Of a stretch of DNA of 64,000 bases, positions 1,205 through 37,334 are shown piece after piece. The notes beneath the pieces are model-generated. The model was not told the DNA's origin. It did no database searches and saw only the letters and a program-made list of their open reading frames with translations. Source of the stretch: Squalus acanthias (Eukaryota); assembly GCA_030390025.1 (NCBI GenBank), contig CM059452.1, positions 7,936,001 to 8,000,000 on the forward strand, written 5' to 3'. Each line of letters begins with the position of its first letter. Within the stretch, counting starts at the first letter, position 1. The position numbers were made by a program, and so were the translations under genes.

Positions 1205-1757
1205 ATCCTGCAGTTTCGGTCTCTTTACCTAAGGAAGGATATACTTGCCATAGAGAGAGTCCAACGATGGTTCACCAGACTGATTTATGGGATGGGAAGA
1301 TTGTCCTATGAGGAGAGATTGAGTAGACTAGGCCTATATTCTCTAGATTTTAGAAGAATGAGAGGTGATCTCATTAAAACATACAACATTCTTACAGGGC
1401 TCGACAGGGTAGATGAAGGGAGGATGCTTCTCCTGGCTGGGATGTCTAGCACCAGGGGTCACAGTCTCAGAATAAGGGGTCGGCCATTTAGGACTGAGAT
1501 GTGGGGGACATTTCTTTACCCAGAGGGTTGTGAATCTTTGGAATTCTCTACCCCAGAGGGCTGTGGAGGCTCAGTCGTTGAATATATTTAAGGTGGAGGT
1601 CAATAGATTTTTGGATGTTAAAGGAATCAAGATATATGGGGATAGTGCAGGAAAGTGGAGTTGAGTTGGAGGATCAGTAATGGTTTTATTGAATGGCGGA
1701 GCTGGCTCGTGGAGCCGAATGGTCTACTCCTGCTCCTATTTATTATGTTCTTATGTT
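1205..1757 (+). mobile_element. CR1-type LINE 3' fragment
   Basis: ORF 1154-1591 contains ERVQRWFTRLI...YEERLSRLGLYSL...RMRGDLI; ends in a TTATGTTC repeat tail. Confidence 0.85.
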
Positions 1758-1799
1758 ACCTGAGATAAGGCCTTTTATAATATAAACAAAGTCATGGGC

Positions 1800-2100
1800 T
1801 GTAACAAATAAGGCAGGGCCTAGTGCAATAATTACTGAAACAGCAACTAGTGTAATATAAACTGAGGCAGGGTCTAGTACAGTAATAACGGAGACAGGGT
1901 CTGGTGTAATATAAACTGAAACAGGGCCTAGTGTAATATAAACAGAGACAGGGGCTAGTGCAGTAATAACTGAGACAGGGTCTAGAGTAATATAAACTGA
2001 GACATGGTCTAGTGTAATATAAACAGAGACAGGGTCTACTGTAATATAAACTGCGACATGGTCTAGTGTAATATAAACTGAGACAGGGCCTCGTGTAATG
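1800..2100. repeat. 27-bp minisatellite (short array)
   Basis: Units like GAGACAGGGTCTAGTGTAATATAAACA. Confidence 0.9.
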
Positions 2101-3117
2101 AGAGAAATAATAGTCAGATAATTACAAATTTATGAACCCCATGTCAGGTACAATTTCATTTTTACCATCACTTACACCAATCATCACACTCTCGAGGTGC
2201 ATATCAGGAGATTCTGAGAGATGCTGAGGTGATCACTGGACAATAAAGCGCAGAGACTGGTGGGTAGCTGCTCATTATCCTCGGTGTGATTTAATCCTCT
2301 TTCCAACTGAATACTGCGGACAGTCATGCTTGACTTCGTAACGGAATGGTCAGTGACATCGCTTTCTAAACAAGAGCACTCAAGAGAATCGGTTATTAAT
2401 CAATGTAAAATATATTAAGCAATTTGCAATTACATTCTGAATACAAGAAAATGTTCAAAAATAATTGTGAAGATAATCATTTATCATTGCAGAATGCACT
2501 TGCAAACATCAAAAATGATGTATTTCGTACACTCACATTGACACTCACACATATATCAAACACTTTGTAAGCGCTCTTTTCAGTTGTTCCTCTCAACCAG
2601 ATGGTAAATGATCCGGTGGACATTAGGACCCTGCAGCCGCCCATCGGCGGTGCTGTGAGGTCACGATTCCAGGTGCTGTCACACAATCAGTGGGTGACGT
2701 GAAAGCTAAATAGAAAATACTGCAGGAAAGAAATCCTTAACATTAAAAAGATTGTGAGCAATTGGCGCATTCCAACACAAGTGTGAATTAGTAAACTTTA
2801 ACACAACGGAGTTTGCTACTAAATAGGGCAAAGGGCAGGGCACTATTGCTCACCTTTAGTTCTGCCCCTCAATCGCAGTTCATCTCTGGAAGATTGTTAC
2901 AAGATTCACCCCATCCTTTCAACACAAATATTACCGACAAAATACCAGTTCAATTAGAAATTGCACACTGGTCCTGATACTGATCAACAACAGTAAAGGT
3001 ATGCTTGAAACCATAAATGTTTGCATCCTCCCGCCCACTCACACATATATCTTTATTTACATTAATACCTATCTATCCATCCAGCGGAGATCTGGTCTCG
3101 AACAATGATAGCTGAGA

Positions 3118-4985
3118 AAGGGCCTAGTGTAATATAAACAGAGACAGGGTCTAGTGTAATATAAACAGAGACAGGGTCTAGTGTAATATAAACAGAGACA
3201 GGGCCTAGTGTAATATAAACAAAGACAGGATCTAATGTAATATAAACAGAGACAGGGTCTAGTGTAATATAAACAGAGACAGGGCCTAGAGTAATATAAA
3301 CAGAGACAGGGCCTAGTTTAATATAAACAGAGACATGGTCTAGTGTAATATAAAGAGAGGCAGGGCCTAGTGTAATATAAACAGAGACAAGGTCTCGTGT
3401 AATATAAACAGAGACAGGATCTAGTGTAATATAAACAGAGGCAGGGTCTAGTGTAATATAAACAGAGACAGGGCCTAGTGTAATATAAACAAAGACAGGA
3501 TCTAATGTAATATAAACAGAGAGAGGGTCTAGTGTAATATAAACAGAGACAGGGCCTAGAGTAAGATAAACAGAGACAGGGCCTAGTTTAATATAAACAG
3601 AGACATGGTCTAGTGTAATATAAAGAGAGGCAGGGCCTAGTGTAATATAAACAGAGACAAGGTCTCGTGTAATATAAACAGAGACAGGATCTAGTGTAAT
3701 ATAAACAGAGACATGGTCTAGTGTAATATAAAGAGAGGCAGGGCCTAGTGTAATATAAACAGAGACAAGGTCTTGTGTAATATAAACAGAAACAGGATCT
3801 AGTGTAATATAAACAGAGGCAGGGTCGAGTGTAATATAAACAGAGACAGGGTCTAGTGCAGAAATAACTGAGACAAGGTCTAGTGTAATATAAACAGAGA
3901 CAGGGCCTAGATTAATATAAACAGAGACAGGGTCTAGATTAATATAAACAGAGACAGGGTCTAGTGTAATATAAACAAAGACAGGATCTAGTGTAATATA
4001 AACAGAGACAAGGCCTAGTGTAATATAAACAGAGACAGGGTCTAGTGTAATATAAACAGAGGCAGGGTCGAGTGTAATATAAACAGAGACAGGGTCTAGT
4101 GCAGAAATAACTGAGACAAGGTCTAGTGTAATATAAACAGAGACAGGGCCTAGATTAATATAAACAGAGACAGGGTCTAGTGTAATATAAACAAAGACAG
4201 GATCTAGTGTAATATAGACAGAGACAGGGTCTAGTGTAATATAAACTGAGAGAGGGTCTAGTGTAATATAAATAGGGACAGGGTTCTGTGTAAGATAAAC
4301 AGAGAATGGGTCTAGTGTACTATAAACAGAGACAGGATCTAGTGTAATATAAACAGAGGCAGGGCCTAGTGTAATATAAACAGAGACATGGTCTCGTGTA
4401 ATATAAACAGAGACAGGATCTAGTGTAATATAAACAGAGGCAGGGCCTAGTGTAATATAAACAGAGACAGGGCCTAGTTTAATATAAACAGTGACACGGT
4501 CTAGTGTAATATTAACAGAGACAGGGCCTAGTGTAATATAAACAGAGACAGGGTTTAGTGTTATATAAACAGAGACAGGGTCCAGTGCAGTAATAACTGA
4601 GACAGGGTCTAGTGTAATATAAAGAGTGACAGGGCCTAGTTTAATATAAATAGTGACACGGTCTAGTGTAATATAACCAGAGACAGGGTCTAGTTTAATA
4701 TAAACAGTGACACGGTCTAGTGTAATATAAACAGAGACAGGGTGTAGTGTAATATAAACAGAGACAGGATCTAGTGTAATATAAACAGAGACAGGGTCTA
4801 GTGCAGTAATAACTGAGACAGGGCCTCGTGTAATATAAACAGTGACAGCATCTTTTTCAGTAATAACTGAGACAGGATCTGTTGCAATATAAAGAGTGAC
4901 AGGTTCTAGTGCAGTAATAACTGCGACAGGGTATAGTGTAATCTAAATAGTGACAGGTTCTAGTGCAGCAATAACTTGAGGCAGA
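3118..4985. repeat. 27-bp minisatellite (about 1.9 kb)
   Basis: Tandem AGAGACAGGGTCTAGTGTAATATAAAC with variants. Confidence 0.95.
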
Positions 4986-5764
4986 GCCTGTTTCGTGGAA
5001 GAAAAACAATCGAGCTTTTGCTGCCAATTAGTGGCAAAACTTTGCCATTACTCCTATTGGGAAAATAGCAGGTCAGGCAGCATCTGTAGAAATATTTTCT
5101 GTTTTTCTTTCAGATTTCCAGCATCTGCAGTATTTTCTTTTTGTATTAGGGGAAAATTAAGATGTCAGTTACTGTTTCTGATATTAATGTATCAAGAAAC
5201 ACCTTTCATTCAAGGACCACCTCATCACATTCTACGGGAGTTCCCGAAGGATTTAAAGTGCAACTAATTGCACGTGAACGTGGCCGATTCGCACACAGAA
5301 AGATCAGCAAAAGAGCAAAGTGGCTCGATTCCTGTTATTGTGTTTCTGTTGAACTTGGTTGAAGTGAGGAATTTTGATCCGGATACAGTCTGGGGCCCTG
5401 GGAGCTTTAATGCCCACCTCAACAGACAAGGTGCGGCGAGCGGGGAGACACTATTCCTTCAGGAAAGGTAGTTCCTTTTCAGTGCTGCACCGATTGGACG
5501 CCTAGTTAATGTGCTTAGGTTCTGAAGTTGATGTGAAGTCTACAATCTGCTGATGCTGAAACCAGAATAAAGTCACTTTAGCCAAGCTGTTACTAAAATG
5601 CTTAATGGGTTTAGGTGACATTTGCGCAAAGAAAGTTCAGCAAAACTATTTTAAAATAATACCGGTTAATATTGTTGATATTCAGCGTCCATATACTAAT
5701 ATCACAAATAGTAACTTCAACAATACAATTACAAAACTTTTGATTCGTGCAATTTAAATTCACT

Positions 5765-8049: not shown

Positions 8050-11000
8050 TGTGGTAACACAATACAGCTTCCTGTGACTCGAACTTTATTGCATCACTTC
8101 CTGTGATTAGTCCAGGATAAATACTGGACTGAGCAGTTGGATCCTGGAGAGGCATAGAGTAAGACCTCTTTTGTATGTAGCACCTTTTTAGTTGATTAAA
8201 GCTTACTTTAAGTTCACCACGCGTAAGGCTCATTCTTACGACAATTTAATCAACTTTGAAAAACTTCGCACTCAAACTTTTTGGACAAACTCGGAACTAA
8301 GGATCCAGGGAATCACCCATCATGGAAAACATCCTTAAACCATCGCGTCTTGACTTGGACCCAAACACCCCAGCAGCCGGTAAGGTGTGGAATCACTGGT
8401 ATCGCACGTTTGACAATTTTCTCGAATATTGCAAGGCTGATGATGACACAAAGTTGCGGATACTCATCAACTGTGTCACTCCGAATGTATTTCAGTATGT
8501 TGAGGAATGGGGCAGTTACGAGGAGGCAATTCGGACGCTTAAAAGACTATATACTAAGACACCGAATGAGGTCTATGCCAGACATCTACTAGCTACAGCC
8601 CAACAAGGGCCGGCGGAATCCATTGATAAATTCCTCCAAGAGCTTCGCAGACTTAGTATGGACTGTAACTTTCAGGCGGCCTCAGCTGAGCTGTACCGTG
8701 AAGAAATGATCCGTGATGCTTTCATCTGCGGGCTTGCCTCCCCATTTATACGCCAGCGTCTACTGGAAAGTAAGACACTTGAGCTTCAGAGAGCTTATGA
8801 CATGGCTTGCTCTCTAGATCTGGCAAAAAGAAATGCAGACCTTTATACAGTGCCCAGACCTCGGTCTGCTGCCTTAACTACAGTCAGGCAATTTAAGAGG
8901 CCACAGGTGAACTCTATTAGGCAGGACTTTATTCCTGACGATCAATCTGATGACTTCACTGATGAAGAGGATGATGACCCCACTGTGGCAGCCTCTTGGC
9001 AATCTAAGAAATGCTTCTTTTGTGGTGATGAGTTTCACCCTCGGAAATTCTGCCCTGCTCGCAATGCGTTTTGCAGTCATTGCAACAAAAAGGGTCATTT
9101 TGCCAAGGTTTGCCTATCAAGAGCCTCTACGAGGGCTTATCAAGCTAAGTCCTACCGAACTGCCCCGGTAAGGGCCTATCAAGATGTTCCGGCTAAAATC
9201 TATCGTGCTTCCTCTCGGGTTTTCTCTCGAAGAAACACACCTAGAGTTTCAGCCACTCTTTGTGCAACGACACCAATTACAGCTGCTTGTCCTCAGAACC
9301 TATTCCATGCAGCTACAAAAGCATCAATTAATGGACATACTTTAGATGCCTTAATTGACTCAGGTAGCACTGATAGTTTCATTAGGGAACAGATTGTTGC
9401 AGAGTTAAAGCTACATGTTTTCCCATCGGACCAGGCAATTGCGATGGCTCAGTCATCACTTAATACCAGAATTTCTGGCTTTTGTATGGTTGAAATAACA
9501 CTTAATGGTCACAGGTACCCCTCCACCCGGCTTTCGGTGCTTAAGGACTTATGTAGTGATCTTATCTTAGGACTGGATTTTCAAAAGCAGCATAAGAAGC
9601 TCACCATTGAGTTCGGCGGATCCAAACCTGAACTCACTATTTCTAATATACGACCTCGATTACCGTTCTGTGCATTGTCAGCAGCTTCACTGGATGAACC
9701 CTCACTGTTTACCAGTATCCCTCCTCGATGCAAACCGATTATAACAAAGTCACGACGTTTCAGTCAGGAAGACCAGTCTTTTATTGCGGCTGAGATTTCT
9801 CGGCTTTTAGCAGAGGATATCATCGAGCCTTGTTCGTCGCCATGGCGCGCCCAGGTCGTTATTGTTAAGAACCCTCTACAACCTCACAAGAAACGGCTGT
9901 GCATTGACTATTCACAGACCATCAATCAATATACGGACTTGGACGCATACCCATTGCCGCGCATCGATGATATGGTTAATAAACTGGCTGAGTACACGGT
10001 GTTCTCAACATATGATCTGAAAAGTGCCTATCATCAGGTACCCTTGAAGGTCTCAGACAAGCAGTATACGGCCTTTGAAGCCAATGGACGGCTGTATCAA
10101 TTTCGTCGCCTCCCCTTTGGGGTCACTAATGGAGTGGCTGTCTTCCAGCGAGCAATGGATGACCTGGTCAAACAGGAAGACTTGAAGGATACGTTTCCTT
10201 ATCTGGACAATATTACTGTCGCAGGTCGCAATCAGCGGGAACATGACGCCAATCTCCAACGATTTTGGGATGCACTCCAGCACCGTAATTTGACATTAAA
10301 TGCGGCTAAATCCATTGAGTCACAACCAACCATCAACATCCTTGGCTATTGTGTGGGCAATGGCATCATTAAACCTGACCCTGAAAGGCTTCGCCCACTC
10401 CAAGAACTCCCGCCACCTAAGAATCCGGCCTCCTTGCGCCGGGCCCTCGGCCTGTTTGCATACTATGCTAAATGGATTCCTAACTTCTCGGACCGAATCC
10501 AACCTCTACTGAAGGCCAGCACATTCCCACTAGACACAGCGGCTGTTGCAGCCTTTAACCTCCTGAAAAAACAGTTGGAGAAAGCGGCTCTTCACTCCAT
10601 CGATGAGAGTCTTCCTTTTGTTGTTGAGTGTGATGCCTCGGAGGTGGCGATCTCGGCCACTCTGAATCAGGAAGGTCGTCCGGTGGCATTTTTGTCCAGG
10701 ACTTTTCAAGGGGCTGAGCTACATTATCCTCCAGTCGAGAAAGAAGCTACAGCCATCATAGAGGCAGTACGGAAGTGGACTCATCTCCTAGCTCGCCAGC
10801 ACTTTACCTTAATCACGGACCAGCGATCGGTCGCCTCATGCTCGATAATCGAAAACGGACCAAAATTAAAAATAATAAAATCCAGCTTTGGCGGCTGGAA
10901 TTGGCCTCTTTTGGTTACACCATCCACTATCGACCTGGCAAGGAGAATGTGGCTCCAGATACCCTCACACGAGCATTCTGCTCGCCATGGCACCCTCTAC

Positions 11001-12487
11001 GCTCGTAGACATCCATGATGGGTTGTGTCATCCGGGCGTTACTCGCATGCTACACTTCGTGCGGTCCCGAAATCTCCCATTCTCTACCGGGGATGTAAAG
11101 AAGATGTGCTCGGACTGCAGAGTCTGTGCGGAATTGAAACCTCAGTTTTTCCGCCCCTCGGGTGGTATACTCATACATGCGACCCAGCCAATGCAACGGC
11201 TTAGCATCGATTTTAAGGGGCCGTTGCCCTCTTCAACTCGCAACACTTATCTGTTGACCATGGTCGATGAGTATTCCCGTTTTCCGTTTGCCTTTCCCTG
11301 CCCCAATATGCTGACGACCACGGTTATCAGCTGCCTTGAGCAGGTATTTGCTTTCTGTGGCATGGCATCCTATGTTCATTCGGATCGGGGCCCTTCTTTT
11401 ATGTCAGGAGAACTCAAGGCCTATCTCTCGGAACGGGGTATTGCTGCCAGCAGAACGACGCCTTATCATCCGGTCGGGAATGGGCAAGTCGAGCGTTTTA
11501 ACGCTATCATCTGGAATGCGGTACGTCTGGCTTTGAGATCTCGGGGCCTACCCAAGCAGCAATGGGAAGCAGTACTTCCAGACGCATTACACTCCACACG
11601 GTCCCTCCTTTCGACCGCCACAAATACGACGCCTCATGAACGGTTCTTCCGATTTCAGCGTCGCTCATCCTATGGGATATCTCTCCCGTCGTGGCTGACT
11701 GCACCGGGACCAGTGCTACTCCGAAGATATGTCCGGGCGTCTAAGAATGACCCCCTGGTAGATGAGGTTGAGCTCACTGACGTCAACCCTACCTACGCCT
11801 ATAATCGGTATCCTGACGGTCGGGAATCTACCGTGTCATTGCGGGATCTGGCTCCCTGCCCGCCGAAACATAGAGGGACACCAGGGGATGATATTGTACC
11901 AGGCACATCTCTGGGCTCGCCAGGTGCCTCTCATCACGATCTGGATCTGACGCCGGCTGGTACCTTACTCCAGCGTGCCGACCTGGGGCAGACTGACTAT
12001 GAGCCCGTCGGGGCTCGCACGCGCAGCCACGATCCACCACGTACCATACGCTCGGAAACGGATCTGCCACAGCCATGCCCGACACCCGTTCGGGCACCAG
12101 TACACAGTCAGGATCGTCCTGACCCCTCACAGAGTGGGCTGGATCACTCGGACTCTGGTCCGCGGCCCGCGGCGGGTAAACGGGCTAGGGGCCCTCTACC
12201 GCTACGAGAACCCAAACGGGTGCGGCTCTCCCTCGTCCGGCGGCTACGAAATGGAGGGAGCATCCCGGCCTCCTAATCTTTTGGGGGGGAGAATGTGGTA
12301 ACACAATACAGCTTCCTGTGACTCGAACTTTATTGCATCACTTCCTGTGATTAGTCCAGGATAAATACTGGACTGAGCAGTTGGATCCTGGAGAGGCATA
12401 GAGTAAGACCTCTTTTGTATGTAGCACCTTTTTAGTTGATTAAAGCTTACTTTAAGTTCACCACGCGTAAGGCTCATTCTTACGACA
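8050..12487 (+). mobile_element. Full-length Ty3/gypsy LTR retrotransposon
   Basis: 194-bp TG...CA LTRs at 8050-8243 and 12294-12487, identical by eye. TSD CCTCC at 8045-8049 and 12488-12492. Polypurine tract at 12283-12293. Domain order gag-PR-RT-RH-IN. Confidence 0.97.
8322..12276 (+). CDS. gag-pol polyprotein, broken by two apparent 1-nt frameshifts (about 10836 and 10984)
   Basis: Two zinc-knuckle-like motifs (CFFC..H..C, CSHC..H..C), protease LIDSGS, RT LPFG/YLDN, RNase H CDAS...EKEA, integrase HHCC plus IDFKGP/SDRG/GQVER. The linker MLDNRKR...PDTLTR is in a third frame (ORF 10775-11008). Confidence 0.92.
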
Positions 12488-12864
12488 CCTCCAGTAAAAC
12501 TCGATTCGATTCCTTACCCTTTGAAAAACACGATGAAGGCCGACAGTATTGAGCAATATTATTTGTTTAGTAATATGACGGCCCGGGAAGTACCCATTGG
12601 TCCGGAAATCTCTCTCCGTCCATCTGTCGCTATTTCTGTAAGTTGGCACAGACACAGTTTGTTACTCCTGAGTGTGAAGTATTGAGCGGGAATGGGATCT
12701 GTGCACAAACCACATTAATAATCCGTCGATTATGGGAGAGCGCCTCTTATACAAGGGGGAGGGGGTCAATCAGGAACCAATCAACTCGAAGCCATTCGCG
12801 GAAAACCACATCACCAATCTTCTTCTTAGGTAGTCCCTCGGATGACTTGCTTCCACACTAAAAA

Positions 12865-13235
12865 TTAGTTCTCAGGGAGGTGACTGATGAGTCCAATGCT
12901 GGACCTACAGTCTCTGTCACAGGTGGGGCAGACGGTGGTTGAAGGGGCGGGTGGGTGGGGTGTTTGGGTTGACGTGCGCTCCTTCTGCTGTTTGCGCTTG
13001 GCTTCCGCTTGCTCCCGGCGAAGAGACCCGAGGTGTTCGGCGCCTTCCCGGATGCTTCTCCTCCACTTTGTGCGATCTTGGGCCAGGGATTCCCAGGTGT
13101 CGGTGGGGATGTTGCACTTTTTCAAGGAGGCTTTGATGGTGTCCTTGAAGCGTTTCCTCTGCCCACCTGGGGCTATTTTGCCGTGTCGGAGCACCGAGTA
13201 TAGCGCTGTTTTGGGCGTCTCGTATCGGGCATGCG
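12865..13235 (-). mobile_element. RTE-clade LINE 3' fragment
   Basis: GGQRKRFKDTIKASLK...WESLAQDRTKWR...CPTCDRDCRSSIGLISH. Confidence 0.8.
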
Positions 13236-14235
13236 GACATCACCAATAACACTGCAATATTATCAATTCATTTTAACTCACTTTGATGCATTAAGAAACG
13301 GTTTGAAGCTATATATTTAGACCAGAAAATGACGTGGATAAGTAATTTCCAAATATTCTTATAATGGCACCTTATTTCAGTCTTTATATCCCTATACCAG
13401 CTATCCACGAACCTAAACAAGGAGCACAAAAAGTGCAACCTTCTGAGAAATAAGAGTTTGATTTAACCTCATGTCATAGAGAACTGAGCCTATAACCTTG
13501 TCCAAAATTGTCATTCAAATCACCATATTCGGCAACTTCACCGACTCAGCTCTGTCTCCATGATGTACCATGTCCACTCTAACCATATATCTCCATCACG
13601 GTGACCCCATCAACCTGAGCACATCTCAGTGATGTACTGACCTTACCCGCCCAACTGGTGAACAATTCATTCAGTGAATGAATGGGCTGAATGGAAAGGC
13701 TCTGGGGAATGCGGTTAAAGGGGTTAAGGGCATTTCAATTTGCGGCCACAATGTCCAAACCCACAGGACATATTTCACTGTGGCAATGACTTACAATGAC
13801 TATATGGCGGTAAAGAAATTCACACTTCATGCTCCTTTTGTCCGTGTGTTTAGAATGGTGTGACTGCACCAGTCCCACAGAGGAGCAAGGATTTAGGTAG
13901 GGAAGGAGAAAAATTATGTACCCATTGATCTGCTATGTATCCGCATTGATTGAAGTAATTCGGGTGAGGATATATTGAGTGCTTTGCTGTACATGAAAGG
14001 GCCACATGTTCCAAATATTACACTTGTCCCTTCTCAACCCAGACATGAGCTCGCTTTATATTTCTGAGATGAAGATTCCCATCACCACAGAAGGATCATC
14101 AGTATCGCGTGGATAGCTTCAGGCTTCTCTTCATGATGTTCAGCTGGTTAGACATGGACACTGTATGGAGTGAAATGATACAGAAAGTCAGGAAGGACTG
14201 AAGGCGCCACACTGACACAAATGTAAAGGGGCTGC

Positions 14236-14400
14236 NNNNNNNNNNNNNNNNNNNNNNNNNNNNNNNNNNNNNNNNNNNNNNNNNNNNNNNNNNNNNNNNN
14301 NNNNNNNNNNNNNNNNNNNNNNNNNNNNNNNNNNNNNNNNNNNNNNNNNNNNNNNNNNNNNNNNNNNNNNNNNNNNNNNNNNNNNNNNNNNNNNNNNNNN
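14236..14400. other. Assembly gap
   Basis: Run of N. Confidence 1.
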
Positions 14401-15934
14401 GGTGTAATGTGCTGGACAGACCCTCCTGCTGACTGCTGCTACTGACAGGATGTCTCAGACATTGGATATATTTCCTATCCTGAGAGATGGGAACAGTTAC
14501 ACACAGTTACACAACTAAATAATTAAAATTGCCTCCAGTACTGTTGCTAGGCAGATTTGTTTATCAATCGGCCTCACTCACAATGTTAAGTGTTTGAAGT
14601 TGGCTTTCAGCCAAGCGGTCAGCACTGAGGAAACAGACCTTTGATTCACTGCACAGAACCGCCAGATGCTTCCTGTAAATGACATTGGGTGGTCGAGCCT
14701 CCCTGACGGCAGTCGGCTGGGCTGCTGCCAAATACTGTGTGGAGCAGATTGGAGTGAATATGAATTGGGAAACAAGATGGGATTTAACTATTTGAACATT
14801 AAATTATTCAGCAGCGCTCTTACAAGAAAGAAACATTTTACATGGTATAACATCTAAAGAAAGACTTTCGGTAAATTCCTTGCTCACAATATTATAAAAT
14901 AGGTTCAGAAAAATTATAGGATCCATATACTAATTAATTAAAAATTCCAAATAAAGATAATTCAGATAATTCAGTCGGTTTATTCATCACTGCACGAAGT
15001 GCTGGAGAGAGATTTTAATGACCCCACACCCACACTGTAATGAGATCAGTGGGAATCGCAAAGTAAATAAAACAATCGGTGGAATTTCCTCGATCCCGCT
15101 GCACTTCCTTGAATATTCTCAGATTAGTGAGCCTGATTGAAACTAAGGGCTCCCTTATTACTGATTAGCAGCCGCGCACTGGGCCGTTTAATTTTGCTGA
15201 TTTGAATTCCTAAACAACCCCTCTCAGAGCCCGGCTACCAATGGGCAGAGAAATGCCGAGTTTGTGCTCTGTTTCAGCGGGAGATGAAGCATTTATTCTT
15301 GTAATATTCTGTAACCTACCGCTATGTCCTGATATTCTGTGTTCCTGATACCAGTGTATGTTACACAGTCAGGCGCTATTAACGTTTGCTGCAAGGATTT
15401 GGAAGCCGGGGTTTGCTGATCGTATTATCAGTTCAAATTCACCAGCTTCTCTTTACCAAAAGCTGATCTGAAGCGGGCGGGCCCCAAAATTCTTATGTGT
15501 CTCCGTCAACTCACTCCTTAATTATCAGGCAAGCCGACTTATATTCCAACTGATTTTCAAAGGGCTGCCTTAGGGTCACAGACTCAAGGGCAGTTAGAGA
15601 AATGCAATGAGAGACACTTGTATAATGTGAGGGCTTTCTACTCATCTCCGGACCCAAATCCTGCAGCTATAGCCATCCACATTGTAAATAGAATCACATT
15701 ACCCATCTCCCGCATTCAGATACATAGACCTACAGCAATTCATAATATAGGGATACTTTATTGTTACAGAGTGAAGGGATAGAGAGCGGGAGATGGAGTA
15801 ACACATACTGGCAGTCTCTTTAGAACCTGATAATGTAATTTAATCTGAGAGATTCACATGCGCTGTGAAGGAGTGAGGAAATAAAGGGATTTCATTGACA
15901 GTCCAGATATAAGTCCATTCTGTTGGTGATGTGG

Positions 15935-16025
15935 ACGGTATGACGTGGATCCAGCAGCCGCCTCTATCAGGGAATCAATAGGCGGCGCCTGTAACCTCGC
16001 CCCCTTCTACCGGGTATTTAACTGC
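15935..16025 (+). promoter_or_regulatory. IgH V promoter (CRE-like TGACGTGG, CAAT-like, TATTTAA; no octamer seen)
   Basis: TGACGTGG at 15941, ATCAATAGG at about 15974 and GTATTTAA at about 16013, all upstream of ATG 16114. This fits the octamer-less, CRE-type promoters described for shark IgH. Confidence 0.55.
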
Positions 16026-16113: not shown

Positions 16114-16159
16114 ATGAGGTCGGCGATTTCTCTCAGTCTGTTGCTGGCTTTCTTAACCG
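16114..16159 (+). CDS. IGHV: IgH V leader exon
   Basis: MRSAISLSLLLAFLT with phase-1 GTGAG donor. Confidence 0.93.
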
Positions 16160-16286: not shown

Positions 16287-16611
16287 GTGTCCAGTCGGAT
16301 TTCACGTTGACTCAGCCAAAGGCAGAGACCAGGAGTCCCGGAGGCTCCCTGAGACTGACCTGTAAAACCAGCGGGTTCAACCTTGACCACGCCTGGATGT
16401 ACTGGATCCGATACGTACCCGAACAAGGGTTGGAGGGGCTGGTTTACTACCAGAGTAAATCGAGCAAGAACTACGCCCCAGGGATCCAGAGCCGCTTTAC
16501 TGCGTCCAAAGACTTTTCAAACAACATCTTCGCTTTGGACATGAATAACCTGAGGACCGAAGACACCGCCATCTATTACTGTACATGGGGTACACGTCCT
16601 ATTCTGGGTGG
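16287..16611 (+). CDS. IGHV: IgM-type VH exon pre-joined to D-like sequence (VD/VDD)
   Basis: [11 protein letters not shown]...[10 protein letters not shown]...[16 protein letters not shown]...RFTASKD...EDTAIYYC, then TWGTRPILG. Open frame; no 23-RSS after the Cys. Confidence 0.95.
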
Positions 16612-16639
16612 CACAACAATTACTCTCAATACAAAAACC
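16612..16639 (+). other. 12-bp-spacer RSS (D-type 3' RSS)
   Basis: CACAACA-ATTACTCTCAAT-ACAAAAACC. Confidence 0.9.
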
Positions 16640-16964
16640 CTCAGCACTAATTGAGTGAGTCTGGGTCAGTGCTCGCTTTCACAATCCAACTGTAGATGCA
16701 GTGAAGTCCTATTTGTGCCCAGCACTGTCTACTAGCACAGTTTAATATGGATAAACTGTGATAATTAATTATTGATCAGTTGGTGCTTTCAATAAGTGTT
16801 CATGGGTTACTCTGTGAAATATAAAACATCAGGGAATTTATAAAGAGTGAAAAGTATCCATTAACACATTTATCATTTTATGAAGATCCATTGTGACTTT
16901 ACTTTGCCTCTGGGATGTGAATATTTAAACTAATGTTGGATTTCTCTCTGTTTTACGCAGAGCT

Positions 16965-17003
16965 GGTTATTGTGTGACCCAGCCCGGGGAATGTAACACT
17001 GTG
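16965..17003 (-). other. 23-bp-spacer RSS of JH
   Basis: GGTTATTGT-23 nt-CACTGTG. Confidence 0.93.
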
Positions 17004-17051
17004 ACGGCCTCGACTACTGGGGACAAGGCACCATGGTGACGGTGACTGCAG
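17004..17051 (+). CDS. IGHJ: JH segment
   Basis: GLDYWGQGTMVTVTA with GTAAG donor. Confidence 0.97.
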
Positions 17052-25314: not shown

Positions 25315-25614
25315 CGACACAGTCTCCTCCCACCCTCTACGCCCTGCTCTCCTCCTGTGAACAACACAACACCGGCGGCCCCGTCACGTACGGCTGTTTG
25401 GCGATGGACTACTTCCCGGAAATCACCAGCCTTTCCTGGAGTAAAGATAAAGAGCCGATCACCACTGGATTGAAGACCTACCCGTCAGTGTTCAACAAGA
25501 AGGGAACCTACACCCTGAGCAGCCAGTTAACCATCACCGAGTCAGAGGTGGGGAGCAGCACAATCTACTGCCAGGTTCGACAAAGTGGGTCGGATAGGAG
25601 CGTCAAAATGCCAG
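25315..25614 (+). CDS. IGHM: IgM constant exon Cmu1
   Basis: [17 protein letters not shown]...[17 protein letters not shown]...TYPSV...[18 protein letters not shown]; AG/GT, phase 1; open. Confidence 0.95.
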
Positions 25615-25699: not shown

Positions 25700-26340
25700 T
25701 GGAGTACTGTGCACAGGTCTGGTCTCCAGATCACACTTACAGTACTGTTCACAGGTCTGGTCTCCATATCACACTTAGAGCACTGTGCACAGGTCTGGTC
25801 TCCATATCACACTGAGAGTACTGTGCACAGGTCTGGTCTCCATATCACACTTAGAGCACTGTGCACAGGCCTGGTCTCCATATTCACACTGAGAGTGCTG
25901 TGTACAGGTCTGGTCTCCATATCACACTGAGAGTACTGTGTACAGGTCTGGTCTCCATATCACACTGAGAGTACTGTGTACAGGTCTGGTCTCCATATCA
26001 CACTGAGAGTACTGTGCACAGGTCTGGTCTCCATATCACACTGAGAGTGCTGTGTACAGGTCTGGTCTCCATATCACACTGAGAGTACTGTGTACCGGTC
26101 TGGTCTCCATATCACACTGAGAGTACTGTGTACAGGTCTGGTCTCCATATCACACTGAGAGTACTGTGCACAGGTCTGGTCTCCATATCACACTGAGAGT
26201 ACTGTGTACAGGTCTGTTCTCCATATCACACTTAGAGTACTGTGCACAGGTCTGGTCTCCATATCACACTTAGAGCACTGTGCACAGGTCTGGTCTCCAT
26301 ATCACACTTAGAGTACTGTGTACAGGTCTGGTTCCATATT
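25700..26340. repeat. 38-bp minisatellite expanded inside a CR1 fragment
   Basis: Unit GAGTACTGTGCACAGGTCTGGTCTCCATATCACACTGA; CR1 sequence continues on both sides (about 25650-26850). Confidence 0.9.
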
Positions 26341-26918: not shown

Positions 26919-27227
26919 ATCTTGTGGTACATCATCCAACTGTGATCCTCACCCTGAGTTCCAGTGAAGAAATCATCAGCAGCAGGTCTGCAACCGCCGT
27001 GTGTTCAATCATCGATTTCCGTCCAAAGTCACTGACCGTGAATTGGCTGAAGAATGGACAGCCCATGGATTCGGGCTTCGTCACCTCTCCCGTCTTTGAA
27101 GTGAACGGGAACTTCTCGGCGACCAGTCGGCTGACATTCACCGCCGGGGAGTGGTTCGCCGGCTCGGTCTATACCTGCCAGGTCTCTCATAAAGGGTTCA
27201 CCCAAAGCCGAAACATCACCAGATCCG
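26919..27227 (+). CDS. IGHM: IgM constant exon Cmu2
   Basis: [14 protein letters not shown]...[20 protein letters not shown]...FSATSRLT...YTCQVSH; AG/GT, phase 1. Confidence 0.95.
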
Positions 27228-29432: not shown

Positions 29433-29741
29433 ATGAGATCCAATGCAACGATCCTGAAATCACTCTTCCGCAACCTTCACTAGAACAGGTTTTACTGGAG
29501 GCGACAGTGACCTTAACCTGCGTCGTGTCTAATGCTCCTTATGGAGTCAACGTGTCCTGGACCCGAGAAAAGGAGACTTTGAAATCAGAGATTGCCGTCC
29601 AACCCGGAGAGGCTCCCAACAGCGTGATCAGCAACTTAAACATCTCGACACAAGCCTGGCTGAGTGGGGATGAGTTCTACTGCGTGGTGAGCCATCAGGA
29701 TATGCCGACTCCTATAAGAGAATCCATCCACAAGGAAAAAG
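29433..29741 (+). CDS. IGHM: IgM constant exon Cmu3
   Basis: [43 protein letters not shown]...[13 protein letters not shown]; AG/GT, phase 1. Confidence 0.95.
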
Positions 29742-30257
29742 GTGAGCGGTGAGATTGTAGCAATAAGTGAGACTCTGTGGCTATTTCCGGTGCTTGTGCA
29801 CGGCCCAATTCGTTCTATTAAGTGTTTGATTGGACTGCTCTGATAATTCAATGGGCAATTCCACTAACTAAACCCTCTAGGACCCGAGATGATGCATTTA
29901 AAGGGAAGCTGGATACGTCAATGAGGGAAAAAGGAATAGAAGGATATGTTATTAGGGTTAGTAAAGAAGGTGGGAGGAGTCTAGTGTGGAGCATAAACAG
30001 CGGCATTGACCAGTTGGGCCGAATGGTCTGTTTCTGTGATGTAAATTCTATATAATTTTCCAGTCCAACTCTTCAAGCTCCCAGAGAGAAGGATTGTATC
30101 TCCCTTTGCTCCGAGCTGGAAAACCGGACAGGACACAGAGGGGAAAAGGGAATACTTTAAAATTCAGCGCAAAGCACATTTCTCTCACATCTAACCGCCG
30201 GTTTCATTGTCTCTGGAATTCTCCAGTTTATTGACCTTTATTGTAATTGTTCTGCAG

Positions 30258-30649
30258 CTAAACATCCGCGGGAACCGTCCGTGTCTGTCCTCCTGCCCCC
30301 GGCAGAAGAAGTCTCCGCTCAGAGGTTCGTCACCCTCACCTGCTTAGTGAGAGGTTTCTCCCCCCGAGAGATCTTCGTCAAGTGGACCCTCAATGACAAG
30401 CCGGTGAATTCCGGCAACTACAAGAACACCGAGGTGATGGCGGAGAACGGCAGCAGTTCCTTCTTCATGTACAGCCTGTTATCCATTGCAGCGGAGGAGT
30501 GGGCCAGCGGCGCTTCTTACTCCTGTGTGGTGGGACATGAAGCGATCCCCTTGAAGATCATCAACAGAACGGTTAATAAATCCAGCGGTAAACCCAGTTT
30601 TGTCAACATTTCCCTTGTTCTGATGGACACCGTCAATTCTTGTCAATGA
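30258..30649 (+). CDS. IGHM: IgM constant exon Cmu4 plus secretory tailpiece
   Basis: [14 protein letters not shown]...[17 protein letters not shown]...YSCVVGHEA; tail [19 protein letters not shown] with N-glycan sequon and penultimate Cys. Internal G|GTAAA donor after 30587 for the membrane form. Confidence 0.96.
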
Positions 30650-30677
30650 GAATCTCTCGATTGCATTTCAGTTCTTG

Positions 30678-30693
30678 AATAAAAACCAATAAA
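30678..30693 (+). terminator. Secretory-form poly(A) signals
   Basis: Two AATAAA hexamers just after the tailpiece stop. Confidence 0.8.
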
Positions 30694-31079
30694 GGCCTTT
30701 TCTTCCAATCGTCAGTTACACACACAGCCGCTCAATTAATTTTGTTTCCCATTTTTGCCAAGGGGAGGGCTGTTTATCTGAAGCAGGATATTGGCCGGTC
30801 TCGGGCCCAAGGCTTGTACAGCCAGCGCTCCCAGCTCAGATACACCACGGGTTAGAGACAGACTGAAGCTCTTTCATGACAGGATTCCTCAAAGTCACTT
30901 CAGCAACTTTCCTCCCGCTGGGGGGAATCAAAAAGTTCCCATTTCCGACAAACAAACGCAGCACATTTAGATCTCGGTGTCCCTGTTTCTCGTGTTGTCC
31001 ATCCTTCAGAATTGGGGCCAATTTTATTTTGCAGCATCGCACCCTCTGGGATCTGAAATAAGGCCACACACGAACACGA

Positions 31080-34159: not shown

Positions 34160-34287
34160 ATTCCTCAGACCACATCTTGATTGAAGACTATGAGGAAGAG
34201 AGCGGCAACATCTGGACAACCGCTTCCACATTCATCATCCTGTTCTTCCTGAGCATGTCCTACAGCGCTGCCGTCACTCTAGTGAAG
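34160..34287 (+). CDS. IGHM: IgM transmembrane exon TM1
   Basis: DSSDHILIEDYEEESGNIWTTASTFIILFFLSMSYSAAVTLVK (antigen-receptor TM motif) with GTGAG donor. Confidence 0.95.
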
Positions 34288-34427: not shown

Positions 34428-34436
34428 ATCAAGTGA
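34428..34436 (+). CDS. IGHM: IgM exon TM2 (IK*), cytoplasmic tail KIK
   Basis: Polypyrimidine tract-CAG|ATC AAG TGA; AATAAA at about 34500 and 34894. Confidence 0.9.
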   Translation: MK

Positions 34437-37334
34437 ACGGTTGAATTTCGGACGCCGTGGATTTTCCTCATCTGTTTATTAACATCTCTGTGTCATGAAA
34501 ATAAAATATGTCCTCTTGGTGATTCTCAGAGTCAAATGCCTTCAGTTAATAGATCCGAATCTGTAGCTGAGAAAATCATAACCGGGATTTCCGTCTCTCT
34601 GTTTGAAATGTGTGAGATAATCGTGGCTATAATATAAATGTATCTTAGAGTTTCACCGTTGTTTGAATATTTCATGTGTAAATAAGTCACTTTTCTCATT
34701 CGTAATTGACAATTGTTCCCTTCCCTTTATGTTGAGCCCCTGTTTTCTCTCCCTGGTGTCTGTTACAGTTGTACAGATAACTGGCAGCTCAGACCGCCTG
34801 TGTTCTGGTCTCAATGTGACGCTCTGTTGTTATATTCACTTTGTGCTAATTTTGTAAAAACTTCACTGTAAATTGTTCTCTGTGAAATTGTTAATAAATC
34901 TGGAATGACAAATTGACTACTTGGACTTTGCTGAATTCCTTCCGCCAAGGCCCCTCCACACCGCTCCATTTTCCCTATCACACTTTGCTTTATTTCCCTG
35001 ACAGGTATTTTTCACCCGTCCTGTCTGGGTTGTGTTTGAACCCAAGTCCCTTCGGATAAGTAGCTACTGCGCCACCCAGTGTTCCTTCCATCAGAGTAAC
35101 GACACCTTTACCCCTGCCTTTTCATGTCAAGACCCAGAGGCGGAATGACTGCACAACGACCAGGCTCACCTCGCAGTCTCTTCCAATATTATGCTCTGTC
35201 ACAGTCACATGCCAGGTTCTATTAACAAGCAGTGATGTATGCTCTGCTCCATCACAGCCTGATAGAGAACAACATATGGCAGAGTAAAACTCCCTTTAAA
35301 CTGTCCCATCAAACACTTCCAGGGCAGGTACAGCACGGGTTAGATACAGAGTGAAGCTCCCCCTACACTGTCCCATCAAACACTCCCAGGGCAGGTACAG
35401 CACGTGTTAGATACAGAGCAAAGCTCCCTCTACACTGTCCCATCAAACACTCCCACGGCAGCTGCACACTTGTTATATACGCACACAGACACCCAGGGCA
35501 GAGAGGAAAGAAGGAGAGATTGTATTTGAGGGAGAGGGGATGAGGGATCACGCGGTGTCCTCAGGTATATTTGGTCATCGCTGGACACAGGTTGTGTGAC
35601 AGTCGGACAAAATCAAATTCTGATGGAATATCGTTCCAGTTTTGTTCAGGCCAGGTGAGCGAGTGTAGCCCTCCTCTCGGGGAGGGCACTATAGAATGTA
35701 TTTTTTGTTTTGGATTAGCCCCTTTAATGGAGTCCCGAGTCCAAATGGTCCACACAGACCAATAAAAGAGTCGGCCCAGCACTGGGGTAACCACTTCCAA
35801 CCCTTCTCCAATCTGAGCCACACCCATTTACCTTGACCATCTGTCTCCTGTATCCCTGACGACCTTTCTCCCTGCTCTAATCCATTCCCTCTGGTACCAA
35901 CTCCCTGAACTCACTGAACATCACTACTGTGTACCGCCAGTGACCTTCAGATCTCTGATCCCTGTTTCCCTGCAGTTTTGCTCCACGTCCATAACCGGAT
36001 CCTCGGACTCTTTCGATGCCTCCCCGCCCCGGGAACATCTCCAGAGGTTTCTGGCCAGACCCGAGTGTCTTCCGGCATTCTCCTTTTGATGCAGTGCTGC
36101 TTTCCCTCTGAGCTCCTGGAGTCCAGGCGCGAGGTCTCCTGTGGTTGAATATATGATCGGGTTGAGGAACGGAAGAATTAGGCGGCCCTTCTGAAGGGCT
36201 GAGAAGGAAGTTTGGAAATGGTTTGAGTTGCTGTTTAAACTATGTCTCTGCCCCAATCTCTCTCCCTCCCCGCAAAGCGACAAATACCTTCAGCCACCAT
36301 CGCTGTGTCTCCCGGCTCTGTATCCCGTCCCCAGGCTCCGAGAATATCGGGCGGTGCAGGGCCCATTGAAGACTTTCCGAGCTGACCCCCCGGGGTCACA
36401 GCCCTGGGTCAGGGGTCACAGGCTGCACACACGGGGAATCTTTAGCGCTGAGCGGAGCCTGGAGACTTCCCGTGACCTCTGACCCTCAAGAATGTGAAAA
36501 ACAGCCAATCGCGGTGCTGTGACATGCGAAAAGCATTGTGGCGTCATCCAGTGCAGGGCAAAGCCGTGACGGCCATGTTTGTGTGACGTGCGGTGTGACG
36601 TGTGACTTCAATTCCCACAAAAGAAACGGTCTCCCTTTCTTAATAAAAAGGAGAAAATATGCGACAGAGATAAAGATACAGACTGCGATAATTGAAGCGG
36701 TTGGCGAGTTGCGCATGTGCGAACAGTGCTCCCAGGGAGCAGCACGGCCCGTGGTCTACATTGGGCCTATTCTAGCCCGCTGTGCATTGTGGGAAACTCT
36801 GTCCTTCATGGCTGCTTAAATCACTGATAGGGTGTGAGCCAACTGAACCACTGAATGGCAATTTATTACAACCTCCCTCGGGGAAACTGCCACACAGTCA
36901 GAGTTCTCCTTACAGGCCAATAGCACTTGGTCAGATTTATTGCAGGTTAACTGACGCACTGAGGCAGCCAGTGACCGGAACAGCAAGAATAGCGAAAGAG
37001 TTCAGAAATCTCTCTATTTTCTCCACAGATCTCCCGCAACATTCAACTAATTTTCTCTTTCATGTCCTCTCCCATTCGGTTGTGGGTTTCCAACACCTCT
37101 GTTTTCAAGCTTGGAAAGTTGCATCTAAATATAGTGAAACTAAAATAGAGTAATGGGTCGGAGGATTTCCCGAGCACCTCAATACATTAAGTACTTGGTT
37201 TTGAAGGAATACACGAGATGAAATAACACACACAGGCAGAATATGGGAACCAGATCCTGTCCCATTAACGGAGCGACCAGCAGGAGATTCCTGGCGCTGT
37301 CAGCAACCTCTTTCTCGGAGCTGATCTTAACATT

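Follow-up and report, generated by a model that had tools for sequence, protein, structure and literature searches.

An IgM heavy-chain cluster of Squalus acanthias is intact in all its exons and carries a V segment that is joined to D2 in the assembled DNA, likely with a piece of D1 in between. The fusion is best explained as the work of RAG and TdT in the germ cells of an ancestor, which would leave a B cell with the D2-J step alone; we regard this account as probable. The cluster lies in a window of 64,000 nt, the whole stretch of DNA that was analysed. All coordinates given are positions in this window, and the genome searched for relatives comprises 3.7 Gb.

The cluster is a full set of IgM heavy-chain elements on the forward strand of the window. 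The leader exon (16114-16159), with an ATG and a GT donor, is followed by the VH exon, which is open up to the second Cys codon (16287-16582), the fused joint, the D2 12-RSS (16612-16639), the D2-J spacer (16640-16964), the JH 23-RSS on the reverse strand (16965-17003, the same as the family majority) and JH itself (17004-17051, GLDYWGQGTMVTVTA) with its GT donor. Intact exons encode C-mu 1 (25315-25614), C-mu 2 (26919-27227) and C-mu 3 (29433-29741); then come C-mu 4 with the secretory tailpiece (30258-30649, with a TM splice donor after 30587 and poly(A) signals at 30678 and 30688), TM1 (34160-34287) and TM2 (34428-34436, an IK followed by the stop), with a poly(A) signal at 34500. All exon frames are open, and GT/AG splice sites and phases agree. 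With a single V and J, D segments, four C domains, a secretory tailpiece and TM exons, the locus has the make-up of an elasmobranch IgM heavy-chain cluster. In a PDB search, residues 6-128 of C-mu 4 plus tail are aligned, with IgM chains among the best matches. A search of shorter proteins gave seven matches to the V (best 69%), none of them named as this gene; the closest named ones are shark VH domains at 64-69%.

The sequence-only reading had noted that the VH runs on after YYC with no 23-RSS, and indeed none is found after the second Cys codon (16580-16582). Instead, a joint of 29 nt (16583-16611), in frame, without a stop and translated TWGTRPILG, leads into the 12-RSS. The distance to the JH 23-RSS, measured from nonamer to nonamer, is the 325 bp that had been claimed. 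The 848 nt that separate V from D2 in the unjoined cluster L014 are missing from the entire window (blastn returns only 28- and 38-nt matches elsewhere), as expected from deletional joining. The V 23-RSS, the D1 RSSs, the D2 5' RSS and the spacers have all been removed, as befits a VDD-J cluster.

Two genome searches and 20 stretches yielded at least 50 loci of the family, at least 44 of them with a located V. As 40 of 83 candidates were scored in one search and 40 of 51 in the other, these numbers are minimum values; some of the loci on small contigs could be allelic to others. The 44 exclude L041-L045, in which J lies behind a satellite and V outside the stretch, and L050, which was not parsed. 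At least 32 of the 44 clusters are joined, and all seven possible joined states occur: beside 12 unjoined clusters there are 8 VDD-J, 13 VDDJ, 4 VD-DJ, 3 V-DDJ, 2 V-D-DJ, 1 VD-D-J and 1 V-DD-J (lower bounds throughout). The VDD-J layout of the present cluster is ordinary within its own genome. Unrelated joints number at least six among the VDD-J clusters and at least seven among the VDDJ clusters. Of these seven VDDJ joints, six keep the reading frame where one third would be expected to (binomial p 0.007). This hints that productive germline VDDJ joins were selected, although the V segments of two of the six are now interrupted by stops.

Three further features were seen in the family. A second VH family (L031-L036, L040, L046, L047), with SASVSKKPGESHKLSC in FR1, has its D, J and spacers in common with the first and is often joined too. 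In the unjoined clusters L008 and L009, the last 7 nt of the V form a G-rich tail similar to the 3' end of D1, and a normal 23-RSS follows; the tail may stem from an open-and-shut joint or have been copied from a VD-joined cluster by gene conversion. The five JH of L041-L045 have a tandem satellite directly upstream in place of the 23-RSS and appear to represent a duplicated, disabled cluster type.

Among 34 clusters compared, the one described here has the most divergent V, at 11.2% from the nearest paralogue (rank 1 of 34). Its FR2 is unique among the 34 in having Tyr for Gln and, in GLEW, Gly for Trp; three other clusters have Phe at the Trp position. We take the two changed positions to be Kabat 39 and 47, presumably light-chain contacts. 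Gly at the Trp position (Kabat 47) is a hallmark of camelid VHH domains. FR2 reads WYRQVPRQRLEFVA in two other clusters (L026 and L028, with L019 listed as well), and the changes in L026 and L028 fall at several positions that we likewise assume to contact the light chain. Against the family majority, the CDRs of the cluster carry 14 nonsynonymous (N) changes and one synonymous (S) change, with a dN of 0.29 versus a dS of 0.08. The frameworks have an N:S of 14:5, which is no different from that of pooled paralogues (p 0.46). Relaxed constraint on the V was considered on the strength of this near-neutral framework ratio and rejected, since the ratio does not differ from that of the paralogues.

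A 182-nt contig of the public run X2 is identical to 16352-16533, a stretch that includes both FR2 changes; the second-best match within the assembly reaches 84%. X2 was called RNA by a tool's guess, and it behaves as RNA in that its contigs pass from leader directly into V and from J directly into C-mu 1. The match suggests that the V is expressed, probably at a low level: the contig has a depth of 180, set against a sum of about one million for IgM FR1, contig depth being a poor measure. X2 lacks the letters private to the cluster at 16156 and 16304, and may come from an allele other than the assembled one.

The sequence-only reading had inferred a semi-invariant, innate-like IgM. These features bear on whether the cluster is a candidate for a selected IgM of that kind, its fixed CDR3 start and unusual V providing a predetermined early-life specificity. 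The wholly intact gene, the first rank of its V in distance to the nearest paralogue, the unique FR2 and the excess of dN over dS in the CDRs would all suit such a role, for which IgM1gj and the joined NS4 light chains of nurse shark pups are published precedents. The idea is nevertheless doubtful, given that the CDR replacement excess is also found in unjoined paralogues such as L008, that framework N:S follows the pooled paralogues, that six unrelated VDD joints are spread over at least eight clusters, one of them on a frameshifted V, that no transcript with this CDR3 turned up in the contigs compared, that the expression of joined H genes is reported as undetected in horned shark (PMC2193156), and that the X2 contig is so shallow beside the IgM total, as far as contig depth can tell. 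It is distinctly unlikely that the cluster became specialised after germ-cell joining, its V changing these two conserved FR2 residues alongside a hydrophobic, fixed start of CDR3, to give a semi-invariant IgM that pairs with light chains in an altered or restricted way and is tuned at the D-J joint alone.

The remaining step depends on a 12/23 pair of RSSs between D2 and J, with spacers of 12 and 23, a perfect nonamer and a heptamer that fits CACNRYR. The D2 12-RSS consists of the heptamer CACAACA (16612-16618), a 12-nt spacer and the perfect nonamer (16631-16639). A strict RSS motif scan misses it because of three private changes in its 28 positions, relative to a version that is exactly shared by 19 of 22 clusters. 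CACNRYR is the heptamer pattern preferred by RAG according to PMC9723617. In the SARP-seq supplement of that paper, the mean frequency for the heptamer plus 2 is 0.119% for the sequence found here, compared with 0.079% in the case of the family version and 1.14% in that of the consensus; the cluster's heptamer is above average in activity in an assay that is mammalian and plasmid-based, with heptamer values that may not carry over to shark. The pair should be usable in shark cells, and the cluster is likely completed by a single D-J step. A blunt D-J join would measure 43 nt and break the reading frame; a product would therefore require a somatic join. The arithmetic behind the claim that most of CDR3 is hard-wired is correct: 29 of the 43 nt in a blunt join, or 9 of about 14 codons, are already fixed. 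Trimming of D2, N addition and hypermutation would erode this share.

The three RSS changes could also mean that the join is recent or polymorphic, or that the cluster rarely completes D-J joining, in which case the V seen in X2 would belong to an unjoined allele. The contrast with the 19 identical versions has a binomial p of 0.02-0.05, calculated post hoc, and no second haplotype of the cluster occurs in the assembly among the matches listed. This is unlikely, since the altered RSS still has its CAC, a perfect nonamer and a heptamer that follows RYR, and scores no lower in the assay, and since joined NS4 genes are common to different nurse sharks (PMC2193156).

The composition of the joint can be read by alignment to V ends, D1 and D2 taken from 12 unjoined clusters, as the sequence-only reading had proposed. 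The alignment gives a trimmed V, the 3' end of D1 with two P nucleotides, about six N nucleotides and D2. The CAR end of the V is indeed trimmed, with 6-9 of its final 9 nt missing. The end of the V and the 3' end of D1 together occupy 16583-16591, either as an 8/9 match to the D1 of L005 or as 3 nt of V followed by 6 nt that match the D1 of L022 and L037. Next come two likely P nucleotides (16592-16593), palindromic to the untrimmed D1 end, and six likely N nucleotides (16594-16599); we infer these P and N assignments from the alignment. D2 (16600-16611) is trimmed by 1 nt at its 5' end and intact at its 3' end. It matches the D2 of L005 at 11 of 12 nt, a score equalled by 24 of 5000 shuffles. 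The identity of D2 is certain: to the sequence match are added its own RSS and a conserved D2-J spacer, which is 93-96% identical to 18 paralogues and 84-88% to three others. The earlier claim of two D-like cores separated by N-like bases stands firmly for D2 and with moderate support for D1, with six likely N bases between them.

It is likely that a piece of D1 lies within the joint, in the order V-D1-D2. The 12/23 rule also permits V to join D2 directly, skipping D1, with the middle of the joint representing a long N region. The choice turns on the P nucleotides. When they are left out, the score of the D1 core is equalled by 286-456 of 5000 shuffles (0.06-0.09), and the 5' end of a D2, matching over 6 nt, does equally well; when two are allowed, only 19-53 of 5000 shuffles do as well (p 0.004-0.01), and these bases adjoin an untrimmed D1 end, as the hairpin mechanism predicts. 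The direct V-D2 join is quite improbable on this evidence.

That the joint is a germline one had also been claimed, with one step left; the family pattern and the V support this well, the joint itself having no duplicate in the assembly among the matches listed. Pairs of duplicated clusters that share a contig carry identical or near-identical joints (L003/L004, L011/L012, L023/L024 and L035/L036). In by-eye comparisons, the VDDJ joint of L029 is present letter for letter in the public DNA run X4, the D1-D2 joint of L028 is present in the DNA run X3, and the joint of L011/L012 is matched at 28 of 29 letters in the RNA-type run X2. The public runs compared (X1, X2, X3, X4, X9, X10 and X18) are all contigs, filtered and with rare variants dropped. 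The joint of the present cluster was found in no contig of four runs compared over a narrow stretch, which is evidence neither way given the dropped variants. X18 contains a 428-nt contig of VDD-J type, about 90% alike, with another joint, and the depth of 31.9 in X2 over the joint stretch is a sum of 1-3 nt overlaps from other clones. No RNA run is recorded as containing the sequence, and no run has more than 0.26 of its words; the paralogues in the assembly by themselves share 0.39 of them.

The private changes of the cluster amount to 2.7% in V. In the J-C intron, three blocks situated 2-8 kb away have 2.1-3.2% and a further four have 0.7-1.7%, a range within which the V falls; the three C exons tested, C-mu 2 being excluded, have 0-1%. 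Tandem changes account for 12 of 34, versus 36% in paralogues, and hotspot changes for 3 of 19, versus 28%. The cluster has no hypermutation footprint in the form of a promoter-proximal excess or of tandem and hotspot bias. Inherited hypermutation had suggested itself from the 0-2% divergence to L021 upstream and the 11% peak in V; it was rejected, as intron divergence shows no decay over 8 kb and there is no tandem or hotspot excess over paralogues.

All of this makes a germline origin of the joint very likely. It is extremely improbable that the assembly caught a somatic two-step intermediate of a lymphocyte, since one clone seldom wins an assembly consensus, the V sequence recurs unchanged in X2, the hypermutation footprint is absent, the majority of clusters are joined and public runs contain three of the other joints. 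In favour of such an intermediate are the single-copy state of the joint and the somatic VDD-J molecules that PMC2435157 describes as common in nurse shark thymocytes and present, often hypermutated, in spleen cDNA. RAG and TdT in an ancestor's germ cells would have joined V, a piece of D1 and D2. For expression, a B cell would need to cut only from D2 to J; about one third of the D-J joints would be in frame and productive, with as many as nine residues at the start of CDR3 common to all products. The join would be one of many independent accidental germ-cell joins that persist in a multigene family.

The precedents that had been invoked, joined clusters in sharks and skates attributed to RAG in germ cells, are in print (PMC2193153, PMC2193156). 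A commentary of 2000 (PMC2193153) names three types of cluster, V DD-J//C, VDJ//C and V D1-D2J//C, in horned shark and little skate and dates their first description to 1988. Their V DD-J//C clusters have the same V-D1-D2 fusion, with the D2 12-RSS and JH 23-RSS left (PMC2193153, PMC2193156), and are likewise mixed with unjoined and fully joined clusters (PMC2193153). In contrast with those examples, the present cluster has close unjoined paralogues that permit its joint to be parsed, and its V is found in an RNA-type run. Lee et al. 2000 (PMC2193156) inferred RAG-type joining in germ cells from trimming and P bases, and reviews restate these results (PMC5192425, PMC4279169, PMC4622739). The nurse shark NS4 light chains of that study resemble this cluster in their trimming, their P/N bases, the clean loss of the RSS and several independent events; they differ in being light chains with a fully joined VJ, for which germline status and expression in pups were experimentally shown. 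Nurse shark IgM1gj (PMC5192425, PMC4279169) is also a germline-joined IgM V region, and is the model for a neonatal fixed specificity, but it is fully VDJ-joined and lacks C-mu 2. The dogfish cluster has four C exons and was rejected as a member of this three-domain subclass, its D2-J interval being open and its C-mu 2 (26919-27227) intact. Type III IgNAR of the nurse shark (PMC4622739), expressed in neonates, shares the principle of a partial germline fusion that lowers CDR3 diversity, but in another isotype, with D1 and D2 fused and three somatic steps left. The somatic VDD-J intermediates of nurse shark IgM (PMC2435157) have the identical configuration, but are cell-specific and not inherited. 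No published description of this particular cluster was found in a search that left subscription journals largely outside and excluded the supplements of shark papers. The VDD-J layout has been known in sharks since 1988, and the cluster adds one further example.

Other observations concern the surroundings of the cluster. Tandem arrays of 27 bp occupy 1700-5000, and a satellite lies at 25700-26320 in the intron between C-mu 1 and C-mu 2. The C-mu 4 region (30100-30800) is 95-99% identical across 39 other copies (paralogues L052-L080); it is more uniform than the introns, as homogenised constant exons would be. Near the promoter, 12600-16000 is 0-2% from L021, and V and the intron are closest to other clusters, which points to patchwork exchange between clusters. 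An LTR retrotransposon at 8200-12400, whose two open frames encode protease, RT, RNase H and integrase, is about 99% identical to a copy (L098) in the J-C intron of cluster L011; its family is apparently young and inserts into the Ig region. The IgM cluster is flanked on both strands by some nine V segments that are not IgH (326-587 and 41200-62750), most with a 23-RSS and some with stops. From their motif we take them to be of TCR alpha/delta type; a PDB search of one of them gave no classification. Their presence is in line with PMC12227049, which reports that IgH clusters are linked to TCR alpha/delta and have V exons of TCR type lying between them.

The proposal that joined clusters supply predetermined neonatal specificities is already published (PMC2193153), and an innate-like role for this cluster would be a hypothesis within it. 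The available literature leaves open if shark IgH clusters that are partly joined complete their rearrangement and contribute to the repertoire; with its unique V and unique CDR3 tag, easy to follow in reads, the cluster is a test case. The whole family, with 32 of 44 clusters joined, seven joined states and close unjoined relatives, is a better resource for the study of RAG in germ cells than this locus alone.
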